In this document: positions 1,414 to 11,703 of the stretch, piece after piece
Layout: the number at the start of each line of letters is the position of its first letter
Position numbering within the stretch: position 1 is the stretch's first letter
Virus genome (UHGV): UHGV-0371394
Source: a virus
Direction: 5' to 3' (one strand)
Length of the DNA: 12,221 nt
Position numbers and translations under genes: made by a program
The notes under the pieces: model-generated
Told to the model about the DNA's origin: nothing
What the model saw: only the letters and a program-made list of their open reading frames with translations
Database searches by the model: none

Positions 1414-1490
1414 TGGCGCGTTGTACTGGATTCGAACCAGTGACCGATTGCTTAGAAGGCAATTGCTCTGTCCGGTTGAGCTAACAACGC
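1414..1490 (-). tRNA. tRNA-Arg (anticodon UCU, decodes AGA/AGG), phage-encoded
   Basis: Minus-strand 77-nt sequence GCGTTGT-TA-GCTC-AACCGGACA-GAGC-A-ATTGC-CTTCTAA-GCAAT-CGGTC-ACTGG-TTCGAAT-CCAGT-ACAACGC-G-CCA folds as a canonical cloverleaf: 7-bp acceptor, D loop with GG, TTCGAAT T-loop, encoded CCA. Confidence 0.85.
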
Positions 1491-1503
1491 AGGGTACAGA
1501 TAA

Positions 1504-1580
1504 TGGACCGCCATCGAGGACTCGAACCCCGCGCAACCAGCTTCGAAGGCTGGCGCTCTATCCTGATGAGCTAATGGCGG
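1504..1580 (-). tRNA. tRNA-Arg (anticodon UCG as read; decodes CGA/CGG), phage-encoded
   Basis: Minus-strand CCGCCAT-TA-GCTC-ATCAGGATA-GAGC-G-CCAGC-CTTCGAA-GCTGG-TTGCG-CGGGG-TTCGAGT-CCTCG-ATGGCGG-T-CCA. Acceptor stem perfect; T-stem has one G-U pair; 5' C is unusual, so boundaries and isotype should be confirmed with a tRNA finder. Confidence 0.7.
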
Positions 1581-1587
1581 TATGTGA

Positions 1588-1663
1588 TGGTGGCCCTTGC
1601 TGGATTTGAACCAGCGACCTGGCGATTATGAGTCGCTCGCTCTCACCACTGAGCTAAAGGGCC
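1588..1663 (-). tRNA. tRNA with CAU anticodon, most like tRNA-Ile2 (lysidine, decodes AUA; ileX/ileZ-like) rather than elongator Met
   Basis: Minus-strand 76-nt GGCCCTT-TA-GCTC-AGTGGTGA-GAGC-G-AGCGA-CTCATAA-TCGCC-AGGTC-GCTGG-TTCAAAT-CCAGC-AAGGGCC-A-CCA; the anticodon arm (GCGACTCATAATCGC) closely matches my recollection of E. coli ileX. Ile2 versus Met cannot be settled from the anticodon alone. Confidence 0.8.
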
Positions 1664-1703: not shown

Positions 1704-1982
1704 TCATCCGTTCTGGCTGACTAAATCCTGTACTTCCCGAACCGTCTGCTCAAAACGTTCAGTCTCCAGCTCAACGCCAATTGCACGACGCCCGAGCGCC
1801 AGTGCCGCTTTCACTGTCGAACCCGACCCCATGAAAAAATCTGCAATCAGGTCACCCGGACGACTGCTAGCGCTGATTATCTGCTGCAGCATTTCTGCCG
1901 GTTTTTCGCACGGATGTTTCCCGGGATAGAACTGCACCAGTTTATGCGTCCAGACATCGGTATACGGCACCTGCGCCGTCAC
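1704..1982 (-). pseudogene. 3' remnant of a DNA methyltransferase gene (N4/N6 MTase, C-terminal AdoMet-binding part only)
   Basis: 92-codon ORF starting at GTG, with HPCEKP and DLIADFFMGSGSTVKAALALGRRAIGVE (FxGxG AdoMet motif); the N-terminal catalytic (DPPY) half is missing because the tR'-like terminator and the Q gene lie immediately upstream. Confidence 0.55.
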
Positions 1983-2531: not shown

Positions 2532-3527
2532 TCAGGACAGCACACCAATCGCCAGCGCGCGATCGATAAAACGAAATATCAGCTCCAGTTGGGAACCATA
2601 CTTCTCTTCAAATGCCACGGTATCCGCATGCAGCTCGTCGTGATGTTTTCTGCACAAAGGCAACACAAAGAGGTCATGCGCTTTTGTACCCATTCCCCCC
2701 TGACCGTGGCCTATCAGGTGGTGGGGATCATCAGCTGGCTTTCCACAACATGCACACGGCTGTGTCTTAACCCAGCGCGTGTACTTTTCATTAACCCAGC
2801 GGCGACGTTTTGGGCGTAACATAAAAGACTCCGGCGACTCCGGATCCACTTTCAGCGCCAGCACCTTTTTCGCTTTATCCTGGATAATGCTGGTGGCAGG
2901 AACCGAAGGAACAAGATCACTCTCCCGGGTGACAGACGGCACAACAGGCTTCGGTAATCTCAGTGCCTTACGGGCTGCACTTTCCGGTAAGGCATCCGCC
3001 AGGTCATTACGAATCAGCCACCAGCACAGTTCCGGCATTGTCACAACGTGACTGTCATCAAAACCGAGATCACGGCGCACAACAGATAACACCCAGCGGG
3101 CACAGTTATCCGTTGCCATTGATTCCAGCCGTTCCGTGAACTGGTCACGGAGAAGATTGTCACAGTGCCAGCACAGACGGATTGCGCCTGGCGCGTGCCG
3201 CATTGTGGTCATGTTCTCGCTGTGCCAGTCGGAATGAGGCCACTGACAGCCCTTTTCACGAAGTAACCAGCTCTCAAGGCATTCCACGCCACCAGCACGA
3301 CGGATCACCGCCTCATGGCGGAACACGGCCCGAACGGCAGGATCATCCGCCAGCGGTTGTGATGCTGCCGGAACGGCACCACTGGCAAAAGATGAATAAC
3401 GTTCCGGCTCAGGCTCCAGCAGGACACGCCCCTGCATAAACAGGGGCATCAGCTCTGAACCTGGCCTGAACAATACGATCCCCATACGCGGGGCAATTTC
3501 AGGGGTCAGTAGTGCTCTCACAGTCAC
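2532..3527 (-). CDS. DUF968-family protein (YdfU-like) with C-terminal HNH-like Cys/His motif
   Basis: 331-codon ORF; C-terminus CACCGKPADDPHHLIGHGQGGMGTKAHDLFVLPLCRKHHDELH resembles an HNH-type metal-binding nuclease motif. GTG start at 3527 (or 3521) directly after the upstream stop; position immediately upstream of Q as for ydfU in Qin. Confidence 0.75.
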   Translation of the reverse strand: MTVRALLTPEIAPRMGIVLFRPGSELMPLFMQGRVLLEPEPERYSSFASGAVPAASQPLADDPAVRAVFRHEAVIRRAGGVECLESWLLREKGCQWPHSDWHSENMTTMRHAPGAIRLCWHCDNLLRDQFTERLESMATDNCARWVLSVVRRDLGFDDSHVVTMPELCWWLIRNDLADALPESAARKALRLPKPVVPSVTRESDLVPSVPATSIIQDKAKKVLALKVDPESPESFMLRPKRRRWVNEKYTRWVKTQPCACCGKPADDPHHLIGHGQGGMGTKAHDLFVLPLCRKHHDELHADTVAFEEKYGSQLELIFRFIDRALAIGVLS

Positions 3528-3528
3528 C

Positions 3529-4326
3529 TCAATGAACGGTATCGAGCAGCTTTAACAGCTCAGGAAATCGGGATTCGAAGAAATGCGGCTGCGTCTCGCG
3601 CGGATTTGCAGGACTGGTGATGTTCTTGCCGAACATGCAGCCTTTCGCTGTCAGCGACCAGAATTTTTTGATGTTGTTAATCGCGGTACGGCTGTATCGT
3701 TCGCGTTGTTCAACGATCCCCAGCTTCGCCAGCTGGTGATATGCCTGATTAGCCGTCAGGCAGATACCATACTGTTTCAGCAGTGCACTCAGTGACAGTG
3801 TCAGGCGACTTGAGCCATCAGGCGCGTCAGCAGGAGCATCAATGGCATAGCGCGGTGCCAGATTCGGTAAGCCAACAGCCTCCTGAAGCTTCTGACAGGC
3901 TCCAAGCACTGATGAGTTAGACAGGTTTAATTCCCGGCGCATAAAGTCCAGCAGGATCACGCCAGCCTGCATCTTGTCAGCAGCCTGCCCGGATAATTTT
4001 TCCGGTGTGCTGGTTACCATATCGAAAGTACGGATCACCTTCAGATGGAATGACGGGCTGATCCACATTGCATAGGCATACACCAGTTCTTTGCAGACAT
4101 ACGTCCCCTGGTTATTTCCGCCACGAATAACGTTAACTGGCTCTATATTGACCGAGTTGCAAATCTGCAACTCGCTTATTAAACGTTCAGTTTGCTCATT
4201 GCGGAGCCAGAATGCAGGCTTATGCTTATCCAGAGAACCGGCAGCCCTGTGCAGATCGTTCAGGCTGTAACGCCCATAAGCATCACGACGAACTTCAATA
4301 CCATCAATGACCATCAGATTATTCAT
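3529..4326 (-). CDS. KilA-N domain protein (putative antirepressor-like DNA-binding protein)
   Basis: ATG at 4326 with strong SD AAGAGGAGA; N-terminus MNNLMVIDGIEVRRDAYGRYSLNDLHRAAG...KPAFWLRNEQTERLI fits the KilA-N fold signature (recalled). Confidence 0.7.
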   Translation of the reverse strand: MNNLMVIDGIEVRRDAYGRYSLNDLHRAAGSLDKHKPAFWLRNEQTERLISELQICNSVNIEPVNVIRGGNNQGTYVCKELVYAYAMWISPSFHLKVIRTFDMVTSTPEKLSGQAADKMQAGVILLDFMRRELNLSNSSVLGACQKLQEAVGLPNLAPRYAIDAPADAPDGSSRLTLSLSALLKQYGICLTANQAYHQLAKLGIVEQRERYSRTAINNIKKFWSLTAKGCMFGKNITSPANPRETQPHFFESRFPELLKLLDTVH

Positions 4327-4345
4327 ACTTCGTTTCTCCTCTTAA

Positions 4346-4735
4346 TCAGGCGGCTGCACCCGCCGTTTTCTCGTACTTACTGATAGTGATCTCGACCTTC
4401 CCTTCCGGGACAACCGGTCCCCACTCCACCAGCATTCTTTTCACCTGACTGTCGTCTTCCCACACACCCGCGTGGGTCAGGGCGTCAAACAGCGCCTTGT
4501 TATAGTTGTCCAGATCGCGGATCCGGTTATCCGGTGGAAACAACACGATCTCCACTGCAGCAGGTGCCGACGTTGGTTTCGGCAGACGACGTAACTGCTC
4601 AACTATTGCTGCGCACGCCGCGCTCTGGAATTTTCGCCCCGCCGCGCTTATCAGGCTCTTACCAGCAAACGCCCCTTTGTTGGGGTGTCGCCAGTACGTG
4701 TTGACGCTGGGCGGAAAAGGCAGAATAAGCTTCAT
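4346..4735 (-). CDS. rusA: Holliday-junction resolvase RusA
   Basis: 129 aa; MKLILPFPPSVNTYWRH...RDLDNYNKALFDALTHAGVWEDDSQV matches the RusA family motifs (recalled E. coli RusA: PWPPSNNRYYRH...[28 protein letters not shown]); ATGA start/stop overlap with the upstream gene. Confidence 0.85.
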   Translation of the reverse strand: MKLILPFPPSVNTYWRHPNKGAFAGKSLISAAGRKFQSAACAAIVEQLRRLPKPTSAPAAVEIVLFPPDNRIRDLDNYNKALFDALTHAGVWEDDSQVKRMLVEWGPVVPEGKVEITISKYEKTAGAAA

Positions 4736-5058
4736 ACTTTCAGGCCCCTCTCATGTAACCAGTGGGCTGCACGCAGCCTTGCGTTTTCCTCACCGGCAAG
4801 CAGTGAGCGGATAATCCCGACCGCCTCGCTGTCGTCGTCCTTCACCGCGGTATGAAGCGTGATCCCCCGGGCCACACCACGCTTTATCGTGATGACGCCT
4901 TTTTTCTCCAGTGCGCGAAGATGCTCCACCGCTGCATTCACCGAACGGTATCCCAGCATGGTTGCCACCTCCTGATTGGTTGGCGGGAAGCCACGTTCTT
5001 TCTGATAAGAAATCAGCATATCCAGCACCTGCTGCTGGCATTGAGTTAACGTCGTCAT
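4732..5058 (-). CDS. LexA N-terminal DNA-binding-domain protein (winged HTH only, no S24 peptidase domain)
   Basis: 108 aa; MTTLTQCQQQVLDMLISYQKERGFPPTNQEVATMLGYRSVNAAVEHLRALEKKGVITIKRGVARGI aligns position by position with E. coli LexA residues 1-70 ([66 protein letters not shown], recalled), including the recognition helix S-x-NAA-x-EHL. ATGA overlaps at both ends. Confidence 0.7.
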   Translation of the reverse strand: MTTLTQCQQQVLDMLISYQKERGFPPTNQEVATMLGYRSVNAAVEHLRALEKKGVITIKRGVARGITLHTAVKDDDSEAVGIIRSLLAGEENARLRAAHWLHERGLKV

Positions 5059-5708
5059 GCCGCCATCTCCCTGACCAGTTTTTCCGCCTGCTGGCGAACC
5101 TGCGCCAGAAACGCCTCACCACATGCCTCAAGTTCATCGCGCCCGATGTAGCTGATTGCCGGTCCCTTCCAGGTCTTGTCGAAAACAGCAATAGCACCAG
5201 CGAAGAAAGCGCCTGTCGGCACCTGCTTCTCATCCTTCGGGATAAACCAGGCAGGCAGTTCAAAACCAATACGCCCGCGAATAAAAGCAATATGGTCCGC
5301 ATCTTCCGGCCACCACACTTCGCTGGTGGCAGCTTTGATCAGGAAAACATAGCGCCCGCCCTTATCACGCATGGCACTGGCATGTTTCATGATGTAACGC
5401 ATGCCGGTGATGTATTGCCCCTCATGCTGACTGGCGCGGCTGTATGGGGGATTACCAAAGGCAGCACCTTTAAGCTCCGCAAGACGTTCTGACCAGTCAT
5501 GCGCCAGCGCGTTATCTTCCGCCGTGTAATACGCGGCACATTTGGCGTTATCACCGTCAGTAAACAGATCCAGAACAAACGGGCCAAACAGGGTGTTAAT
5601 TCCCCAGAAAATGTTGTCCGGCGTGCGCCACTGATCGCCCGCTTCCTTCAGTTCATGGGCTGGTTTGTTCCGCAGTTCCGCCAGCGCCTGGCAATATTTA
5701 TTACTCAT
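5055..5708 (-). CDS. Phage DNA N6-adenine methyltransferase (Dam-like)
   Basis: Contains FGNPPYS (N/DPPY catalytic motif). ATG at 5708 overlaps the upstream stop as TAATG; an alternative GTG at 5741 with SD AGGTGA would add 11 codons. Confidence 0.7.
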   Translation of the reverse strand: MSNKYCQALAELRNKPAHELKEAGDQWRTPDNIFWGINTLFGPFVLDLFTDGDNAKCAAYYTAEDNALAHDWSERLAELKGAAFGNPPYSRASQHEGQYITGMRYIMKHASAMRDKGGRYVFLIKAATSEVWWPEDADHIAFIRGRIGFELPAWFIPKDEKQVPTGAFFAGAIAVFDKTWKGPAISYIGRDELEACGEAFLAQVRQQAEKLVREMAA

Positions 5709-6202
5709 TAAGCCCCCACGTAATTCCCTGAGAGATACCACTCTTCACCTGATGCAGCCCGCTTACTGCTTTTCCGTAAACACCGTTCACGACGCGCCAG
5801 AAAATTGTTTCGTTCTGGCTGGGAGTGGCTTTCACGGAATGCCGCCATCCACACGGTTGCAGCACGACGGTATAAGCCCCTGGACTCCAGTTCTTCAGCC
5901 TGGCGGGTCAGGCACAAAATCACCCGTGGATCGTTAGTGCCGACATAGAAATTGCGCACAGGTCTGGTTTCTCGAACTGGTTGTGGTTCCGGCTCCTGCG
6001 ATATCTCAGCCTGGCGCGGGAAATGTCTGCGTGTATCCCCTTCACAACGGTGAGCCACACGCCCACTCTGACGTAACTTGCTTGCTGACTGCAGAACGCG
6101 CTGCCGTGAGTAACCTGCAAAAGCATCCGCAATGTCTCCGGAAGTACACCCCGGATGGGCTTCAATGAATTTCTGAACGTCATTTAACAGACTCATGATC
6201 AC
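5708..6202 (-). CDS. PerC-family-like transcriptional regulator (N-terminal wHTH-like region plus C-terminal PerC/Pch-like segment)
   Basis: C-terminal LESRGLYRRAATVWMAAFRESHSQPERNNFLARRERCL resembles the conserved core of PerC/Pch regulators (recalled, not searched). Start is either GTG 6202 (GTGA overlap) or ATG 6196. Confidence 0.5.
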   Translation of the reverse strand: MIMSLLNDVQKFIEAHPGCTSGDIADAFAGYSRQRVLQSASKLRQSGRVAHRCEGDTRRHFPRQAEISQEPEPQPVRETRPVRNFYVGTNDPRVILCLTRQAEELESRGLYRRAATVWMAAFRESHSQPERNNFLARRERCLRKSSKRAASGEEWYLSGNYVGA

Positions 6203-7140
6203 CCTCTGAATCCTGCCGGGATCTGGCTGTAGTCCACGTTGTCGTAACTGGCTTTGAAGTACGGGTCCTCGCGTTTTTCGGTGTACGTGCTGACGGACGG
6301 CGATAAGCGCAGGGAAAGCTCATCCCATTTTTCCCGCAGCTTCGACGGGCTGAGCACGTTACGGCACCAGAACGGATCGCGGCTGACGCGGCTGTACATC
6401 TCGCAGATTTGTTTGTGAGTACGCCCATCCTGTACACACATCAGGCGAATTTCGTTTGCCCAGGCTGTCCAGTTAGGTTCTTTGGGACGAACCACCTCGC
6501 CGTCACATTCGGCAGCCTGCTCGTACAGGGCGATGATTTTTTTCCAGAGCCACTGTGCGCAGGTCAAATCATCCTGCGTCCCCCACTGGCGCTTTTTAGG
6601 GCTGAATACAACCGCATCAGGATGGCGAGTTAAAAAATCCTGTTCAGCCGTCTGCGTGTCCGGTTGCGAAGCGTCCGGACGAGAAGGTTTTTTATCTGAC
6701 GGATCATGTTTTGATTTTACTGACGGATCCCCGCCAGATTCTGACGGGTGAAAACCCGCTTTTTTGCCAGATTTCGACGCATCAAATTTTGACGGGTCAG
6801 ATTTTGATGCGTCAGATTTTGACGGGTCAGAATCTGACAGTTGAGAAAATGCCGCTGTCTGAAGCTTCGCAACGTTAAGCTGATAAACATTCGACGCATT
6901 GCGGTTACCCTGGCGACGCGCCTTACGCGTTAACCAGCCTTCTGCTTCCAGCCGTGCGATAGCCGTTCTGACGGTACTCATCCCCGCGCCAATCTGACGG
7001 GCAATGGTTTCAATTGATGGCCAGCACACACCTTCGTCATTACTGAAATCAGCCAGGCGGGCCATAATTGCCACGCTGGATAACTTCATGCCTGATGCAG
7101 CGCAACCATCCCATACATAGCCGGTTAATTTAGTGCTCAT
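6199..7140 (-). CDS. Replication initiation protein (HTH-domain initiator, lambda O functional analogue) with low-complexity repeat linker
   Basis: ATG at 7140; N-terminal winged-helix region (SSVAIMARLADFSNDEGVCWPSIETIARQIGAGMSTVRTAIARLEAEGWLTRK) typical of phage/plasmid initiators; central S/D/K/P-rich repeats encoded by tandem 15-bp DNA repeats; position right after the cro/cII-like genes. Confidence 0.7.
   Translation of the reverse strand: MSTKLTGYVWDGCAASGMKLSSVAIMARLADFSNDEGVCWPSIETIARQIGAGMSTVRTAIARLEAEGWLTRKARRQGNRNASNVYQLNVAKLQTAAFSQLSDSDPSKSDASKSDPSKFDASKSGKKAGFHPSESGGDPSVKSKHDPSDKKPSRPDASQPDTQTAEQDFLTRHPDAVVFSPKKRQWGTQDDLTCAQWLWKKIIALYEQAAECDGEVVRPKEPNWTAWANEIRLMCVQDGRTHKQICEMYSRVSRDPFWCRNVLSPSKLREKWDELSLRLSPSVSTYTEKREDPYFKASYDNVDYSQIPAGFRG
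6692..6843. repeat. Iteron-like array: at least 8 imperfect direct repeats (consensus about ATTYTGACGGRTC), the last five exactly 15 bp apart
   Basis: Cores at 6698, 6722, 6743, 6776, 6791, 6806, 6821, 6836; all spacings are multiples of 3 and lie in the initiator-gene linker, as lambda ori iterons lie inside O. Confidence 0.5.
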
Positions 7141-7149
7141 GACCGACCT

Positions 7150-7488
7150 CTATTTCCCTGAATTTACGACGAAACTGTTCGAGCGGACTGAAGCATTCAT
7201 GCTCATAACCTTCGCGGAGGTAGATAACCCGTTGTGTTTCCGGCTCCCAACGAATGACTCTGACGGGCACTCCGTAGTGATCTTTGAACCAGCGGTTAAC
7301 TTGTCGCAAAGGACTGTCTCCTTCTGCCGGTTGAAATCACCCACAGCCCACTCTGCAAAGCTGTGGGTTACAATTTCCCTGTCACCTGGTACATTCACTG
7401 CATAGCAATATTCCACCTTCGCTTTTCCACCCGGTACAGGAAGCGCAATCAGTTGCGAGCGACGGTAGTGTGTTGTTAAACTGTTCAT
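7150..7488 (-). CDS. Hypothetical early protein; 3' part of this frame looks non-genuine (possible frameshift, see findings)
   Basis: ATG at 7488 overlapping the upstream stop (ATGA). The first roughly 65 codons are protein-like; the C-terminal 45 are S-rich low complexity, while an alternative frame (7130-7309) is protein-like and ends 9 nt inside the initiator gene. Confidence 0.4.
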
Positions 7489-8042
7489 GCGTTAGTTTCT
7501 CCACAACCAGAAGCAATCGACGCCACGACGCCCGGAGCTGCACACTCGCGGGCGTCATTACTTTCTGAAATGCAAAAAATTTTGTAGACAAGTGCTGCAT
7601 GCTCCTGCAGCTTCGAAATTGAGAGATACAGCTCGTCGTTAATTGCTGTCTTCTCATGCGGTTCCACTACACCGTCTTCGATTGCTGAACGAATCTGTTT
7701 TGAATAACTGCCGATCTGTTCAATGACTTCCAGCAGACGCTGGTTAATATCGGCGTTGTCCACATCCTCGACGTCAGGAAGAGACACAAAGACGCCATTT
7801 GCAGACTGCGCCACAGCATCAGCAATGAAGTGAGTGCCACCAGCACGCTGTAAAACCATTGCCCATCCCAGCGGGAAAATCTGATCGCCATCTGCACGAA
7901 GGCGGTTGAATAAAGCGTTTTCTGTTACATCGAGCCAGTCAGCCGCTTCAGCGTAACCACCCGGCAACGCCGCGATAGTTTTTCTGACAGCTTTCACGTA
8001 CCACTCAGGCTGTTTTTCTATTTTCCAGTGATGCTTACCCAC
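7485..8042 (-). CDS. Hypothetical early regulatory protein at the cII position (possibly CII-like / Phage_CP76-like)
   Basis: 185-codon ORF starting at GTG 8042 with strong SD AGGAGGT 6 nt upstream; immediately downstream of the cro-like gene. Family assignment is by position and weak recollection only. Confidence 0.45.
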
Positions 8043-8295
8043 GGCTTACCTCCTGTTCCTGTGGTTTTAACTCATTCCGGTTTTGACTAGATTGAAAGCG
8101 TGCAGGATAGAGAATCTGCATTTCGCTGATTTCTCCCTTAAAAAAATTGGCCAGACGCTCTGCAAGATCGATAGATGGAATTTGTTCCAGTCTCTCAATA
8201 CGACTCAGCGTTGCTGGATTAACCTGAACGCCCGCAGCAACATGCTGCAAAGTAAACCCGTGCGCCTTACGCACATTTCGTAATGGTGATTGCAT
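8035..8295 (-). CDS. Cro-like HTH (XRE-family) repressor, divergent from cI
   Basis: 86 aa; ATG 8295 with GGAGG SD; HTH segment RKAHGFTLQHVAAGVQVNPATLSRIE; divergently oriented to the CI repressor across an operator region. Confidence 0.75.
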   Translation of the reverse strand: MQSPLRNVRKAHGFTLQHVAAGVQVNPATLSRIERLEQIPSIDLAERLANFFKGEISEMQILYPARFQSSQNRNELKPQEQEVSRG

Positions 8296-8392: not shown

Positions 8393-9085
8393 ATGAACAT
8401 AGGAAATCGAGTCAGACAACTTCGCCAGGCGAAGAACATGAAAATCGCCGATCTCGCTGAAGCAATAGGAGTGGATGCGGCGAATATCTCACGCCTGGAA
8501 ACAGGTAAGCAGAAACAATTCACTGAACAAGCCCTGAGTAATATTGCCAGGAGCTTAGGTGTTGATATTGCTGATCTCTTTACCTCAGACTTCAAAAGTA
8601 ATACTGTATGTAAAAACAGTATTAGTGAGGATGTTGCGCAGGTGAAGGATGTATTCCGTATTGAAATGCTGGATGTCAGTGCCAGTGCGGGAAATGGCCT
8701 TATCCAGGGCGGTGATGTCATTGATGTGATTCATGCCATTGAATACAGAACTGATAATGCTGTATCGATGTTTGGCGGACGACCAGCCAATCACATTAAA
8801 GTTATCAACGTTCGTGGGGACAGTATGTGTCCAACCATTGAGCCAGGAGATCTCATCTTCGTTGATGTCAGTATCAATCAGTTTGATGGAGATGGTATCT
8901 ATGTATTTGGTTTTGATGATAAAATTTATGTCAAACGACTGCAAATGATACCTGACAAACTACTGGTGATTTCGGATAATCAGATTTACCGTGAATGGGG
9001 AATTACCAGCGAAAATGAACACCGGTTTATGGTCTTTGGAAAGGTCTTAATCAGCCAGTCACAAACCCTTAAGCGACACAATTAA
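8393..9085 (+). CDS. cI: CI-type phage repressor (N-terminal HTH_XRE, C-terminal S24 LexA-like autopeptidase domain)
   Basis: 230 aa; N-terminal HTH (MNIGNRVRQLRQAKNMKIADLAEAIGVDAANISRLETGKQ); C-terminal VRGDSMCPTIEPGDLIFVD...KIYVKRLQ with the Ser/Lys dyad context of S24 peptidases; flanked by the OR and OL operator sets. Confidence 0.9.
   Translation: MNIGNRVRQLRQAKNMKIADLAEAIGVDAANISRLETGKQKQFTEQALSNIARSLGVDIADLFTSDFKSNTVCKNSISEDVAQVKDVFRIEMLDVSASAGNGLIQGGDVIDVIHAIEYRTDNAVSMFGGRPANHIKVINVRGDSMCPTIEPGDLIFVDVSINQFDGDGIYVFGFDDKIYVKRLQMIPDKLLVISDNQIYREWGITSENEHRFMVFGKVLISQSQTLKRHN
8602..8621. promoter_or_regulatory. LexA (SOS) box-like palindrome TACTGTATGTAAAAACAGTA inside the cI coding sequence
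   Basis: Matches CTGT-N8-ACAG with flanking TA on both sides; 17/20 identical to the E. coli SOS-box consensus TACTGTATATATATACAGTA; lies in the cI interdomain linker codons (TVCKNSI). Confidence 0.5.
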
Positions 9086-9195: not shown

Positions 9196-9603
9196 TTCCA
9201 GACAAACAAACAAGGTACTAACAAAATTTGGTTGTAACACGGCGTATGGCACATGCGTCGTTAGCGGTCTGGGGACGTTAAAGGGGACAATCCACTCCTT
9301 GCTCGGGCAAACAAACCAGGTAGCCGGAATGTGCAAGTCAATGATGATGCTGATAAGACGCCTAACCAGCGTGGCGATTCGGTTTGACGCCTGGGAAGAG
9401 ACCAGGGTGCAACGATGAGGGCATTTATGGAACCGCGACAAAGTGTGGTGCCGTAACTGGCTAAGTGCTCTCAGCGTTGTGGTAATCCGCGAAATGGCGC
9501 GGCGGTAAGTATGGCGGGGTTACTCTTTCCCCGTTGAGGACACCGGATTGTCAGGTTGACCATACGCCTGAGTGACAACCCCACCACAACAGCCACTGCT
9601 TTG

Positions 9604-9650
9604 GCGGTACCAGTTTGTACACTTGCTTCCGGCTGGTACCGCTCTTTTTA
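9604..9650 (+). terminator. Terminator-like hairpin in the pL leader (10-bp stem gcggtaccag/ctggtaccgc, long loop, then TCTTTTTA)
   Basis: Perfect 10-bp inverted repeat 9604-9613 / 9633-9642 followed by a T-rich tract; the 3' side CGCTCTTTTTA also resembles a boxA-like element. Confidence 0.4.
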
Positions 9651-9786
9651 CAAAACAGAGAAGAGCATCACCGGACGACGGGCTCATAACCCAATCCATC
9701 CGGGCGGCTGCCACCGCAGGTGTTCTTCTCTGTTTTGTGGAGAAACCAACCGACCTTGCAGGGTCGATATGATGAGGAGCAGCAAA

Positions 9787-10149
9787 ATGGCTAGCGAACG
9801 CAGTACTGATGTGCAGGCATTTATCGGGGAGCTGGACGGCGGCGTATTTGAAACCAAAATCGGCGCAGTTCTCAGTGAAGTCGCTTCCGGTGTGATGAAC
9901 ACGAAAACCAAAGGTAAGGTCTCACTCAACCTGGAAATCGAACCATTTGATGAGAACCGTGTGAAAATCAAACACAAACTCTCATATGTTCGCCCGACTA
10001 ACCGCGGGAAAATTTCCGAAGAAGACACCACCGAAACGCCGATGTATGTCAATCGCGGTGGTCGCCTGACTATTCTGCAGGAAGACCAGGGACAATTACT
10101 GACTCTTGCCGGTGAACCTGACGGAAAACTACGCGCAGTAGGTCATTAA
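9787..10149 (+). CDS. yfdP: YfdP-like hypothetical protein (first gene of the pL operon)
   Basis: ATG 9787 preceded by GAGGAG at 8-nt spacing; 120 aa; assigned by size and synteny with the following yfdQ/yfdR-like genes (CPS-53 order yfdP-Q-R-S-T, recalled). The track ORF 9556-10149 has a Cys-rich, non-protein-like N-terminal extension that I do not accept. Confidence 0.6.
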   Translation: MASERSTDVQAFIGELDGGVFETKIGAVLSEVASGVMNTKTKGKVSLNLEIEPFDENRVKIKHKLSYVRPTNRGKISEEDTTETPMYVNRGGRLTILQEDQGQLLTLAGEPDGKLRAVGH

Positions 10150-10214
10150 TATCGTTCTTAATTAACTGATTATTTATCTCATCACTGAATATCTTTATAT
10201 AGTGAGGACTTATT

Positions 10215-11039
10215 ATGTCTCAGAACTTAGACGCAACCGCAATTAATCAAATCCATGCCCTTATTTCTGCTCAGGGTGTTAATGAAATTATCAGTAAGAT
10301 TGGTGCCGATGCTGTGGCATTGCCTGAGAATTTCCGCATTCATGATCTGGAAAAATTTAATTTAAATCGCTTCCGTTTCCGTGGTGCGCTTTCCACTGCC
10401 AGCATCGATGACTTTACCCGTTATTCTAAAGATCTTGCAGATGAAGGCACCCGCTGCTTTATCGATGCTGATAATATGCGTGCCGTCAGTGTGCTTAACC
10501 TGGGTACTATTGATGAACCAGGTCACGCAGATAACACCGCCACTCTCAAACTGAAAAAGACAGCACCGTTCTCTGCTCTGTTGTCTGTTAATGGCGAGCG
10601 TAACTCCCAGAAGTCACTGGCAGAATGGATTGAAGACTGGGCCGACTACCTTGTAGGCTTTGATGCTAATGGTGACGCTATTCAGGCAACAAAAGCGGCT
10701 GCAGCTGTCCGTAAAATCACGATTGAAGCAAACCAGACCGCTGATTTTGAAGATAATGACTTCAGCGGCAAACGCTCCCTGATGGAGTCTGTCGAGGCGA
10801 AAACCAAAGATATTATGCCAGTGGCATTTGAATTTAAATGCGTTCCGTTTGAAGGTCTGAAAGAACGTCCGTTTAAATTACGCCTCAGCATTATCACTGG
10901 CGATCGTCCTGTACTGGTTCTGCGCATTATTCAGTTGGAAGCAGTCCAGGAAGAAATGGCTAACGAATTTCGTGATCTGCTTGTTGAGAAATTCAAAGAC
11001 AGCAAAGTAGAAACCTTTATTGGTACTTTCACCGCCTGA
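10215..11039 (+). CDS. yfdQ: YfdQ-like protein (DUF2303 family), function unknown
   Basis: 274 aa, the length I recall for E. coli CPS-53 YfdQ; SD GAGGA upstream of ATG 10215; followed by an HD-domain YfdR-like gene. Confidence 0.7.
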
Positions 11040-11051
11040 TTTCATTACTGC

Positions 11052-11074
11052 AAATGCCCCTGCGGGGGCATTTA
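11052..11074 (+). other. Stable GC-rich hairpin (aaatgcccc-tgcg-ggggcattt) between yfdQ-like and yfdR-like genes; possible attenuator or processing site
   Basis: 9-bp stem, 4-nt loop; only a short U-tract follows, so not a strong intrinsic terminator. Confidence 0.3.
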
Positions 11075-11166
11075 TGGAAACGTAATTAACTCAATAATCG
11101 CCGGATGGTAAGGGCTTCTTTTTACCAAAATTCAGTGCGGTGCAGCGCATATACGTGGAGAACAAA

Positions 11167-11703
11167 ATGTCATTTATTAAAACTTTTTCCGGGAAGCATT
11201 TTTATTATGACAAGATAAATAAAGACGACATCGTTATTAACGATATCGCGGTTTCCCTTTCAAATATCTGTCGCTTTGCAGGGCATCTTTCACACTTCTA
11301 CAGCGTCGCCCAACATGCGGTGCTTTGCAGCCAGCTGGTACCGCAGGAATTTGCTTTTGAAGCGTTAATGCATGATGCAACAGAAGCATATTGCCAGGAC
11401 ATCCCCGCACCACTGAAACGACTTCTTCCTGACTATAAACGGATGGAAGAAAAAATAGACGCCGTAATCCGTGAGAAATACGGGTTACCCCCAGTTATGA
11501 GTACGCCCGTGAAATATGCCGATCTCATCATGCTGGCAACCGAACGCCGCGATCTCGGGCTTGATGATGGCTCTTTCTGGCCTGTACTGGAAGGTATCCC
11601 GGCAACAGAGATGTTCAAAGTGATTCCACTGTCGCCAGGCCATGCCTACGGGATGTTTATGGAACGTTTTAACGAGTTATCGGAGTTACGCAAATGCGCA
11701 TGA
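11167..11703 (+). CDS. yfdR: HD-domain phosphohydrolase, YfdR-like 5'-deoxynucleotidase
   Basis: 178 aa from ATG 11167 (GGAG upstream); HD signature H...HD (FAGHLSHFYSVAQHAVL ... ALMHDATEAY); size and position match CPS-53 YfdR (recalled). Confidence 0.75.
   Translation: MSFIKTFSGKHFYYDKINKDDIVINDIAVSLSNICRFAGHLSHFYSVAQHAVLCSQLVPQEFAFEALMHDATEAYCQDIPAPLKRLLPDYKRMEEKIDAVIREKYGLPPVMSTPVKYADLIMLATERRDLGLDDGSFWPVLEGIPATEMFKVIPLSPGHAYGMFMERFNELSELRKCA

Follow-up and report, generated by a model that had tools for sequence, protein, structure and literature searches.

A LexA-type DNA-binding head followed by a predicted two-helix module is encoded in the early operon of lambdoid prophages

LexA represses the SOS regulon through an N-terminal winged helix-turn-helix, and its C-terminal S24 domain holds the Ser119/Lys156 dyad and also provides the dimer interface. 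What, then, could a phage do with the DNA-binding part alone? A stretch of viral DNA of 12,221 nucleotides (UHGV virus genome UHGV-0371394; the whole of it is hereafter called the window) raises this question. On its minus strand, an open reading frame with an ATG start codon at 4732..5058 encodes a protein of 108 residues in which a LexA-type winged helix-turn-helix precedes a C-terminal two-helix module and the S24 domain is missing (ORF map, PF01726, and PHROG 362). We examined what this protein is, how widely it occurs, and which of several possible activities its residues and its genomic setting favor.

The protein contains a LexA winged helix-turn-helix and lacks the S24 domain

The winged helix-turn-helix spans codons 1–69 (4852..5058, minus strand), as delimited by Pfam (residues 1–65), AlphaFold2, and Foldseek. 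The Pfam profile LexA_DNA_bind (PF01726, cutoff 23.7 bits) matches residues 1–65 over its entire length (profile positions 1–65 of 65) with 69 bits and E = 2.9e-19. A phmmer search of the PDB recovers the LexA N-terminal domain (1lea, E = 7e-16) along with full-length LexA chains (E about 1e-15). Two AlphaFold models have mean pLDDT values of 76.9 and, with a deeper alignment, 84.2. The AlphaFold2 secondary structure comprises helices at residues 6–22, 28–35, and 40–52 and strands at 56–58 and 66–68, and Foldseek superposes the predicted head on the LexA–DNA complex 3jso with an rmsd of 1.6 Å over 68 columns at 50% identity. A preliminary description of this DNA, made from the letters alone, had aligned the first 70 residues with the LexA winged helix-turn-helix and had proposed a PF01726 search and a structure prediction as checks; both bear out the assignment.

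The same description had held that the autocleavage domain is missing, and this too is confirmed. Apart from PF01726, no Pfam family scores above its cutoff anywhere in the protein, and there is no match to PF00717 (S24). The BLASTP alignment with E. coli LexA (39 of 90 positions identical, 43%, E = 1e-21) is confined to LexA residues 1–86. A match to the NCBIfam lexA equivalog TIGR00498 covers model positions 1–91 of 203 and scores 70.8 bits, below the cutoff of 110.95; because the match stops at position 91 and remains under the cutoff, the S24 half is absent and not just diverged. With a chain that ends at residue 108 before any S24 domain, and with a score short of the equivalog cutoff, the protein is not a LexA. 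Since it has neither a Ser/Lys active site nor a docking surface for the RecA filament, RecA-stimulated self-cleavage should be unable to remove it. Several records misname it as a protease, under “SOS-response repressor and protease LexA” or “RecA-mediated autopeptidases”.

A predicted helical hairpin forms the C-terminal part

Beyond the winged helix-turn-helix, AlphaFold2 predicts a low-confidence linker followed by two confident helices at residues 75–88 and 93–103 (pLDDT 87–89). The linker comprises codons 70–74 (4837..4851, minus strand); pLDDT falls below 50 at residues 71–75 in the first model and averages 62 over this block in the second, and both its length and its sequence differ among the aligned homologs. 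The two helices make up a family-specific hairpin of codons 75–103 (4750..4836, minus strand), delimited from AlphaFold2, conservation, and the translation. In the family alignment, Ala97 and Leu101 are invariant, positions 80, 83, 86/87, and 100 stay hydrophobic, an A-R-x-R-A motif is retained, and the hydrophobic stripe persists down to about 40% identity. At that distance the module is conserved over at least six enterobacterial genera. Judged by these alignments, the two-helix module is a trait of the LexA-like family. It had been overlooked in the preliminary description.

The isolated LexA head is a poor operator binder and requires a dimerizer. When fused to heterologous leucine zippers, LexA residues 1–87 repress SOS operators, which is the principle behind LexA-based bacterial two-hybrid systems; therefore, a LexA head on any dimerizer should be sufficient in principle. 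These fusions resemble the form proposed for the phage protein in combining a LexA head with a small helical dimerizer into a RecA-insensitive repressor of SOS operators. They differ in being artificial and in carrying the exact LexA head, whereas the head encoded in the window is 57% diverged and its dimerization is a matter of prediction. The hairpin appears amphipathic and would be too small for stability alone, and two hairpins could assemble into a four-helix bundle. Residues 75–103 may thus substitute for the S24 domain as the dimerization element, with the module dimerizing the protein via the flexible linker. Comparison of the C-terminal tail with solved structures returned no significant match; the best was the HOIL-1L LTM at E = 1.3, and homology of the tail to a solved dimerization motif was rejected on that account.

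The gene is common in E. coli and already annotated

At a threshold of at least 95% DNA identity, the gene is present in 2233 of 5426 complete E. coli genomes (41%), with up to four copies per genome. The window is identical to an E. coli chromosome across both this gene and the cI gene, and its positions 4300–5800 are 97–98.5% identical to the phages SfV, SfII, SfIV, mEp460, and cdtI and to many Stx2a, Stx2c, and Stx2k phages. PHROG 362 matches the full length of the protein, residues 1–108 including the two-helix tail, with E = 1.4e-59. RefSeq calls the gene “LexA family protein” or “LexA family transcriptional regulator”, and phage records use “LexA DNA binding domain protein” (mEp460), “LexA-like protein”, or “orf42: unknown” (SfV). 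A pangenome study of Stx phages merely lists pham 237 (pfam01726, 15 phages; PMC8136144), which most probably is this gene. PHROG 362, pham 237, SfV orf42, SfII_44, and the mEp460 gene represent the same family, to which the window copy is 95–100% identical. In the full-text literature we found catalog mentions only and no functional study of the family. As a sequence, the gene is not new: it is common and already annotated. Both the existing annotation and the extreme commonness had gone unmentioned in the preliminary description.

More distant members were recovered by an exhaustive profile search, which finds full-length relatives at 40–49% identity with Cronobacter, Kosakonia, Enterobacter, Cedecea, and Salmonella as named sources. 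Nearer relatives come from Citrobacter and Hafnia, and every named source belongs to the Enterobacterales. Most related loci recovered from species-representative genomes were bona fide lexA genes.

The gene is embedded in an early rightward operon

The locus is the early rightward operon of a lambdoid prophage of the SfV/SfII/mEp460/CPS-53 type. According to Pfam and the ORF map, its minus strand encodes a cro-like helix-turn-helix protein (8035–8295), CII/CP76 (7485–8042), a replication protein (6199–7140), and a PerC-like protein (5708–6202). The immediate upstream neighbor of the LexA-like gene is a phage Dam N6-adenine methyltransferase (5055..5741, minus strand; PF05869, E = 2.4e-45), and its downstream neighbor is a RusA Holliday-junction resolvase (4346..4735, minus strand; PF05866, E = 5e-15). 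A KilA-N protein (3529–4326), a DUF968 protein (2532–3527), and the Q antiterminator (2134–2529) follow on the same strand, and the cI repressor, with helix-turn-helix and S24 domains, is divergent (8393–9085, plus strand). The sequence and ORF coordinates show that the stop codon of Dam overlaps the start codon of the LexA-like gene in an ATGA at 5055..5058 and that its own stop codon overlaps the start of RusA in a second ATGA at 4732..4735 (both minus strand). The translationally coupled placement between Dam and RusA that had been described earlier is therefore correct.

This arrangement recurs in Citrobacter and Cronobacter prophages, where the order is cI(S24), cro, CII, DUF4222, replication, PerC, in some cases Dam, the LexA-like gene, RusA, DUF968, and antiterminator. 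A consensus scan found no promoter-like site directly upstream of the gene or within Dam and PerC. Rfam has no match in or near the gene, and annotation of anti-phage defense with PADLOC yielded just a weak, irrelevant CARF match. The early rightward promoter would drive the gene on one transcript with cro, cII, the replication gene, perC, dam, rusA, and Q. Because transcription is early and rightward, the protein should appear only upon prophage derepression or infection.

DNA-contact residues point to a CTGT-like half-site in the E. coli subfamily

The recognition helix (VNAAVEHLRALEK) corresponds to codons 40–52 (4903..4941, minus strand), as read from the translation and from alignments to LexA. 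In the contact list of a review that cites the LexA–DNA crystal structure, Ser39, Asn41, Ala42, and Glu45 are the primary CTGT contacts of LexA (PMC11442139), and in the alignment all four residues on that list are kept in the phage protein. Older contact lists based on NMR add Glu44 (PMC3091678; PMC13416735). Relative to LexA, the recognition helix carries the substitutions P40V and E44V. The wing residues Arg64-Gly65-Ile66 are kept as well and are invariant across the family, and the DNA-contact residues together with the wing form the most conserved part of the protein. For the E. coli subfamily, a CTGT-like half-site would be the most economical expectation. Given that the E. coli version retains the CTGT-reading residues, binding to CTGT-type palindromes is its most likely activity.

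The wider family is less uniform. Glu44 is replaced in all 13 of 13 diverse members, by Val, Ala, Thr, Phe, Leu, or Tyr; Glu45 is present in 8 of the 13 and Ala42 in 10. Positions 42, 44, and 45 also differ between subfamilies, with NTIAGHL in Citrobacter and NAATDML in Cronobacter. To our knowledge, enterobacterial LexA and the SOS box are invariant, and the variation in the helix therefore suggests that at least some subfamilies act on other operators. Weighed heavily, as we think it should be, the variation at contact positions argues against one host SOS-box function for the family as a whole.

Comparison with LexA and with GIL01 gp6

The protein shares with E. coli LexA (1lea, 1jhh, 3jso) the winged helix-turn-helix, the four contacts on the review's list (Ser39, Asn41, Ala42, and Glu45), the Arg64-Gly65-Ile66 wing, and an A-G-E sequence at the position of the cleavage site. 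It differs in lacking S24, in P40V and E44V, and in a hairpin that is unrelated to LexA. LexA is autoregulated from its own SOS boxes, whereas the gene in the window is part of a phage operon and is not controlled in this way.

The only characterized stand-alone LexA-head protein of a phage that we found in the literature is gp6 of the Bacillus thuringiensis tectivirus GIL01, a truncated LexA homolog that activates the late promoter P3 (Fornelos et al. 2018, PMC6182141). Lys38 of gp6 is required for P3 binding, and the palindrome that gp6 recognizes, GaCACAnnTGTGaC, is not an SOS box (PMC6182141). Like the protein studied here, gp6 is a LexA winged helix-turn-helix without S24 that is encoded by a temperate phage and made as an early product following derepression. 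It is 66 residues long and ends just past the wing, whereas the enterobacterial protein has an additional 38 residues of linker and two-helix module. At E ≤ 100, BLASTP yields no alignment of the two, and each resembles the LexA of its own host (44% identity for gp6 and 43% for the window protein); they are therefore independent captures. When the recognition helices are set against each other by eye, SHKTAHRYL in gp6 and SVNAAVEHL in the window protein, Lys38 of gp6 lies opposite Asn41. By analogy of build and working, and not by descent from gp6, the window protein may be grouped with phage stand-alone LexA-head proteins. The gp6 precedent had been overlooked in the preliminary description. 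BFVD contains many further viral proteins that consist of a LexA head only, at 65–152 residues, and metagenomes encode minimal LexA heads of 69–82 residues as well as proteins with a tandem pair of LexA heads.

A candidate surrogate for cleaved LexA

Our preferred reading, to which we assign a probability of about 0.42, is that the protein is a dimeric, delayed-early DNA-binding regulator, insensitive to RecA, that recognizes CTGT-type palindromes and serves as a LexA surrogate after cleavage of the host repressor. A captured enterobacterial LexA DNA-binding domain would here have become a sequence-specific DNA-binding regulator. With host LexA already destroyed during lytic growth, the uncleavable surrogate would re-occupy SOS boxes; its targets would be host boxes and, where the phage has them, boxes in cI and in a late methyltransferase gene. 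The analysis establishes the fold, the domains present, the conserved contact residues, the place in the operon, and purifying selection; that the protein dimerizes, which operator it reads, whether it represses or activates, and what the phage gains are inferred. That the surrogate goes on to re-repress the SOS regulon late after induction, among its targets genes under LexA control in rival prophages, colicins, and toxin modules, is a rather unlikely extension; if it were true, a single prophage would influence SOS-dependent mutagenesis, the cross-induction of other prophages in the same cell, and the amount of Shiga toxin that multi-prophage cells release.

If SOS-box binding is true, about two-fifths of sequenced E. 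coli genomes contain a natural LexA that is beyond removal by RecA, among whose carriers are Stx2a-, Stx2c-, and Stx2k-converting phages and Shigella serotype-converting phages. Such binding could change the duration of the SOS response after induction, with consequences for mutagenesis, antibiotic tolerance, induction of neighboring prophages, and toxin release. Experimental interest comes from two facts: the gene is very common both in E. coli and among Stx phages, and the CTGT-reading residues are retained.

Strong LexA boxes are present in the phage lineage of the window. A canonical LexA (SOS) box, TACTGTATGTAAAAACAGTA, lies inside cI at 8602..8621 (no strand assigned) and is the sole exact CTGT-N8-ACAG in the window, embedded in a longer perfect palindrome. 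Scored with a position matrix of 29 E. coli boxes, it has a heterology-index-like value of 3.2, compared with a median of 6.6 for the 29 known boxes; shuffled windows contain 0.015 sites scoring below 8. The strong SOS box that had been noted in cI is thus real. In SfII cI the box reads TACTGTATATAAAAACAGTA and the flanking codons are different, and preservation of the box amid changing flanks suggests selection on the DNA sequence itself. The box is a candidate target only for phages with that cI allele.

A second box, TACTGTAAAAATAAACAGTG, lies downstream and overlaps codons 3–9 of a gene for a 350-residue methyltransferase located between Q and the holin. In a phage database, the LexA-like gene is found in 13 of 13 records with the cI allele and in 27 of 28 with the methyltransferase; because these records represent one phage lineage, common descent accounts for the co-occurrence no less well than a functional tie would. 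Of 51 IMG/VR loci that extend at least 5.5 kb to either side of the gene, the cI box is present in 14 and the downstream box in 17, whereas 26 lack any strong LexA box over that distance. LexA boxes are absent from the Citrobacter and Cronobacter loci, and the cI allele occurs in 1040 genomes as against 2233 for the LexA-like gene. On these counts we rejected the idea that gene and cI box necessarily go together, and the functional tie between the two that the preliminary description had implied is not supported. A link to the methyltransferase box was likewise rejected, as phage phiNP also carries a methyltransferase with the box and the surrounding stretch of about 14 kb that was examined contains no annotated LexA-like gene.

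Alternative functions

The box counts bear directly on a different possibility, namely a phage-specific transcription factor that reads an operator diverged from the SOS box and activates or represses a phage promoter, with no role at host SOS genes. We regard this as a serious, if tentative, alternative. It has a precedent in the activation of P3 by gp6 through its own palindrome GaCACAnnTGTGaC (PMC6182141); the family-wide loss of Glu44, the P40V substitution, and the variation among subfamilies at positions 42, 44, and 45 resemble the diversification of immunity specificities; and half of the carrier loci lack a canonical box nearby. These points are offset by the E. coli subfamily, in which four of the four primary LexA contacts on the review's list are kept, and by the presence of the Q antiterminator, which already serves the late genes of the window phage. 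Moreover, when intergenic DNA of the window and of the Citrobacter and Cronobacter loci was scanned for inverted repeats, no palindrome other than SOS boxes proved to be conserved, and a scan of the same loci for CTGT-Nx-ACAG with x = 0–20 detected no shared phage-borne operator. The best candidate, an intergenic-looking palindrome at 7339–7368, was rejected as an operator, as it falls within a conserved 112-residue ORF and is not conserved in Cronobacter. If the protein does act at an operator of its own, it is an uncharacterized early-operon regulator in a medically relevant group of phages.

Were the protein expressed in the lysogen, it could raise the threshold for SOS and induction, as a non-inducible dampener of SOS or as a second lysis-lysogeny switch. 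That 41% of complete E. coli genomes carry the gene, in as many as four copies, hints at a benefit to the host, and the window phage has a LexA box within cI. We nevertheless consider this improbable. Expression in the lysogen is not indicated, because the gene lies inside a pR-driven delayed-early operon, with ATGA overlaps on both sides and no promoter-like site upstream in Dam or PerC. Most carriers lack the cI box (1040 genomes with the allele, 2233 with the gene), and frameshifted alleles are common in cryptic prophages. The earlier proposals of a second lysis-lysogeny switch and of dampened Q-dependent late genes fit poorly with this delayed-early setting and with the lack of a promoter-like site directly upstream.

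A protein decoy that works without DNA is very improbable. Such a decoy would titrate a LexA-binding factor or serve, through an LLAGEE sequence in the C-terminal hairpin, as a cleavage substrate or competitor for LexA and RecA*. LLAGEE does align with the LexA cleavage-site motif VAAGEP: residues 79–90 (AVGIIRSLLAGE) correspond to LexA 75–86 (GLPLVGRVAAGE), including the Ala-Gly scissile pair, with Ala88-Gly89 opposite Ala84-Gly85 of LexA. The matching positions, however, are limited to AGE and a few hydrophobic ones, the model shows a helix here and not a strand or loop, and the catalytic domain is absent. RecA* contacts the C-terminal domain of LexA (PDB entry 8trg), which is precisely the domain that the phage protein is missing, and it is the DNA-contact residues and the wing that are best conserved.

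Both halves of the protein are under purifying selection. Across head and tail, pN is 0.2–0.36 against a saturated pS of 0.7–0.9, and for the C-terminal helices pN is 0.26 against a pS of 0.9. By these sequence comparisons, the gene is real, under selection, and of two-part build. A functionless, decaying remnant of a captured lexA, which the many frameshifted or internally deleted alleles might suggest, is effectively refuted by the strong selection in both halves, by the distinct C-terminal module kept at 40% identity over at least six enterobacterial genera, and by the conserved operon position. The frameshifted alleles, common in cryptic prophages, are as expected for prophages in decay.

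A near-consensus LexA box lies within cI

The cI repressor gene (window 8393-9085, + strand) contains a near-consensus LexA box, TACTGTATGTAAAAACAGTA, enclosed by a perfect palindrome with 9-nt arms (8599-8624) in the stretch that codes for the repressor's linker. This cI allele is found in 1040 of 5426 E. coli genomes; the cI gene of SfII carries the box as TACTGTATATAAAAACAGTA, and the codons flanking it differ from those of the window allele. The sense strand of cI also holds a weak promoter candidate, composed of TTTACC (8579-8584), a 17-nt spacer, and TACTGT (8602-8607), whose -10 element the LexA box would cover. This candidate promoter could give rise to a transcript for the C-terminal domain of cI, with Met92 (ATG at 8666) as the start. 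We found no paper in the literature on this box.

A second LexA box and the region downstream of Q

Between Q and the holin gene lies a gene for a DNA methyltransferase of 350 aa, whose codons 3-9 overlap a second recurrent LexA box, TACTGTAAAAATAAACAGTG. This second box recurs in 20 of the 80 related loci (at 14999-15018 in the IMG/VR locus L043, for example) and in the Citrobacter phage phiNP (L107, 7047-7066). The corresponding methyltransferase gene in the window (1704-1982, - strand) is a remnant comprising the last 92 codons only. Downstream of Q, at 1138-1337 and 1414-1663 (- strand), lie an STnc100 sRNA, matched to Rfam RF02076 at 140 bits, and a tRNA-Met/Arg/Arg cluster. Stx phages carry tRNAs and stx at this same position; the window contains no stx gene.

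Open reading frames and repeats around the replication gene

Two ORFs on the - strand overlap in different frames in the interval between cII and the replication gene, and which of them is called varies by annotation pipeline. The 112-aa ORF (window 7150-7488) is annotated in SfII and shows synonymous-type differences from Cronobacter in its 5′ part. The 59-aa ORF (7130-7309) occupies the position of DUF4222 calls in related loci. Inside the replication-protein gene, nested inverted repeats (GACGCATCAAATTTTGAC / GTCAGATTTTGATGCGTC and GTCAGATTTTGAC / GTCAGAATCTGAC, 6776-6838) look like origin iterons and fall in a serine/aspartate-rich repeat-coding stretch.

Distribution and possible decay of the LexA-like gene

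On the right side of cI (window 9556-11703, + strand) are genes that look like counterparts of YfdP, YfdQ, and YfdR from CPS-53/KpLE1, a cryptic prophage of K-12, and the PerC-like gene is annotated as yfdN in related records. The K-12 copy presumably carries a deletion that starts inside the Dam gene (yfdM) and continues onward; in that case the LexA-like gene is missing from it, an absence that may explain why the gene escaped K-12-based regulator surveys. Among E. coli genomes, LexA-like alleles with frameshifts or internal deletions recur (P0089, P0094, P0117, P0074, P0087, and P0100), and several of the damaged alleles are broken at the run coding for RGVARGI, a pattern consistent with decay in cryptic prophages.

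LexA-type heads also exist in other architectures. P0131, P0160, and P0179 are minimal LexA heads of 69-82 aa. Five metagenomic proteins (P0128, P0129, P0138, P0139, and P0142) carry two tandem LexA-type winged HTH domains per chain without an S24 domain, and may be single-chain pseudo-dimers.
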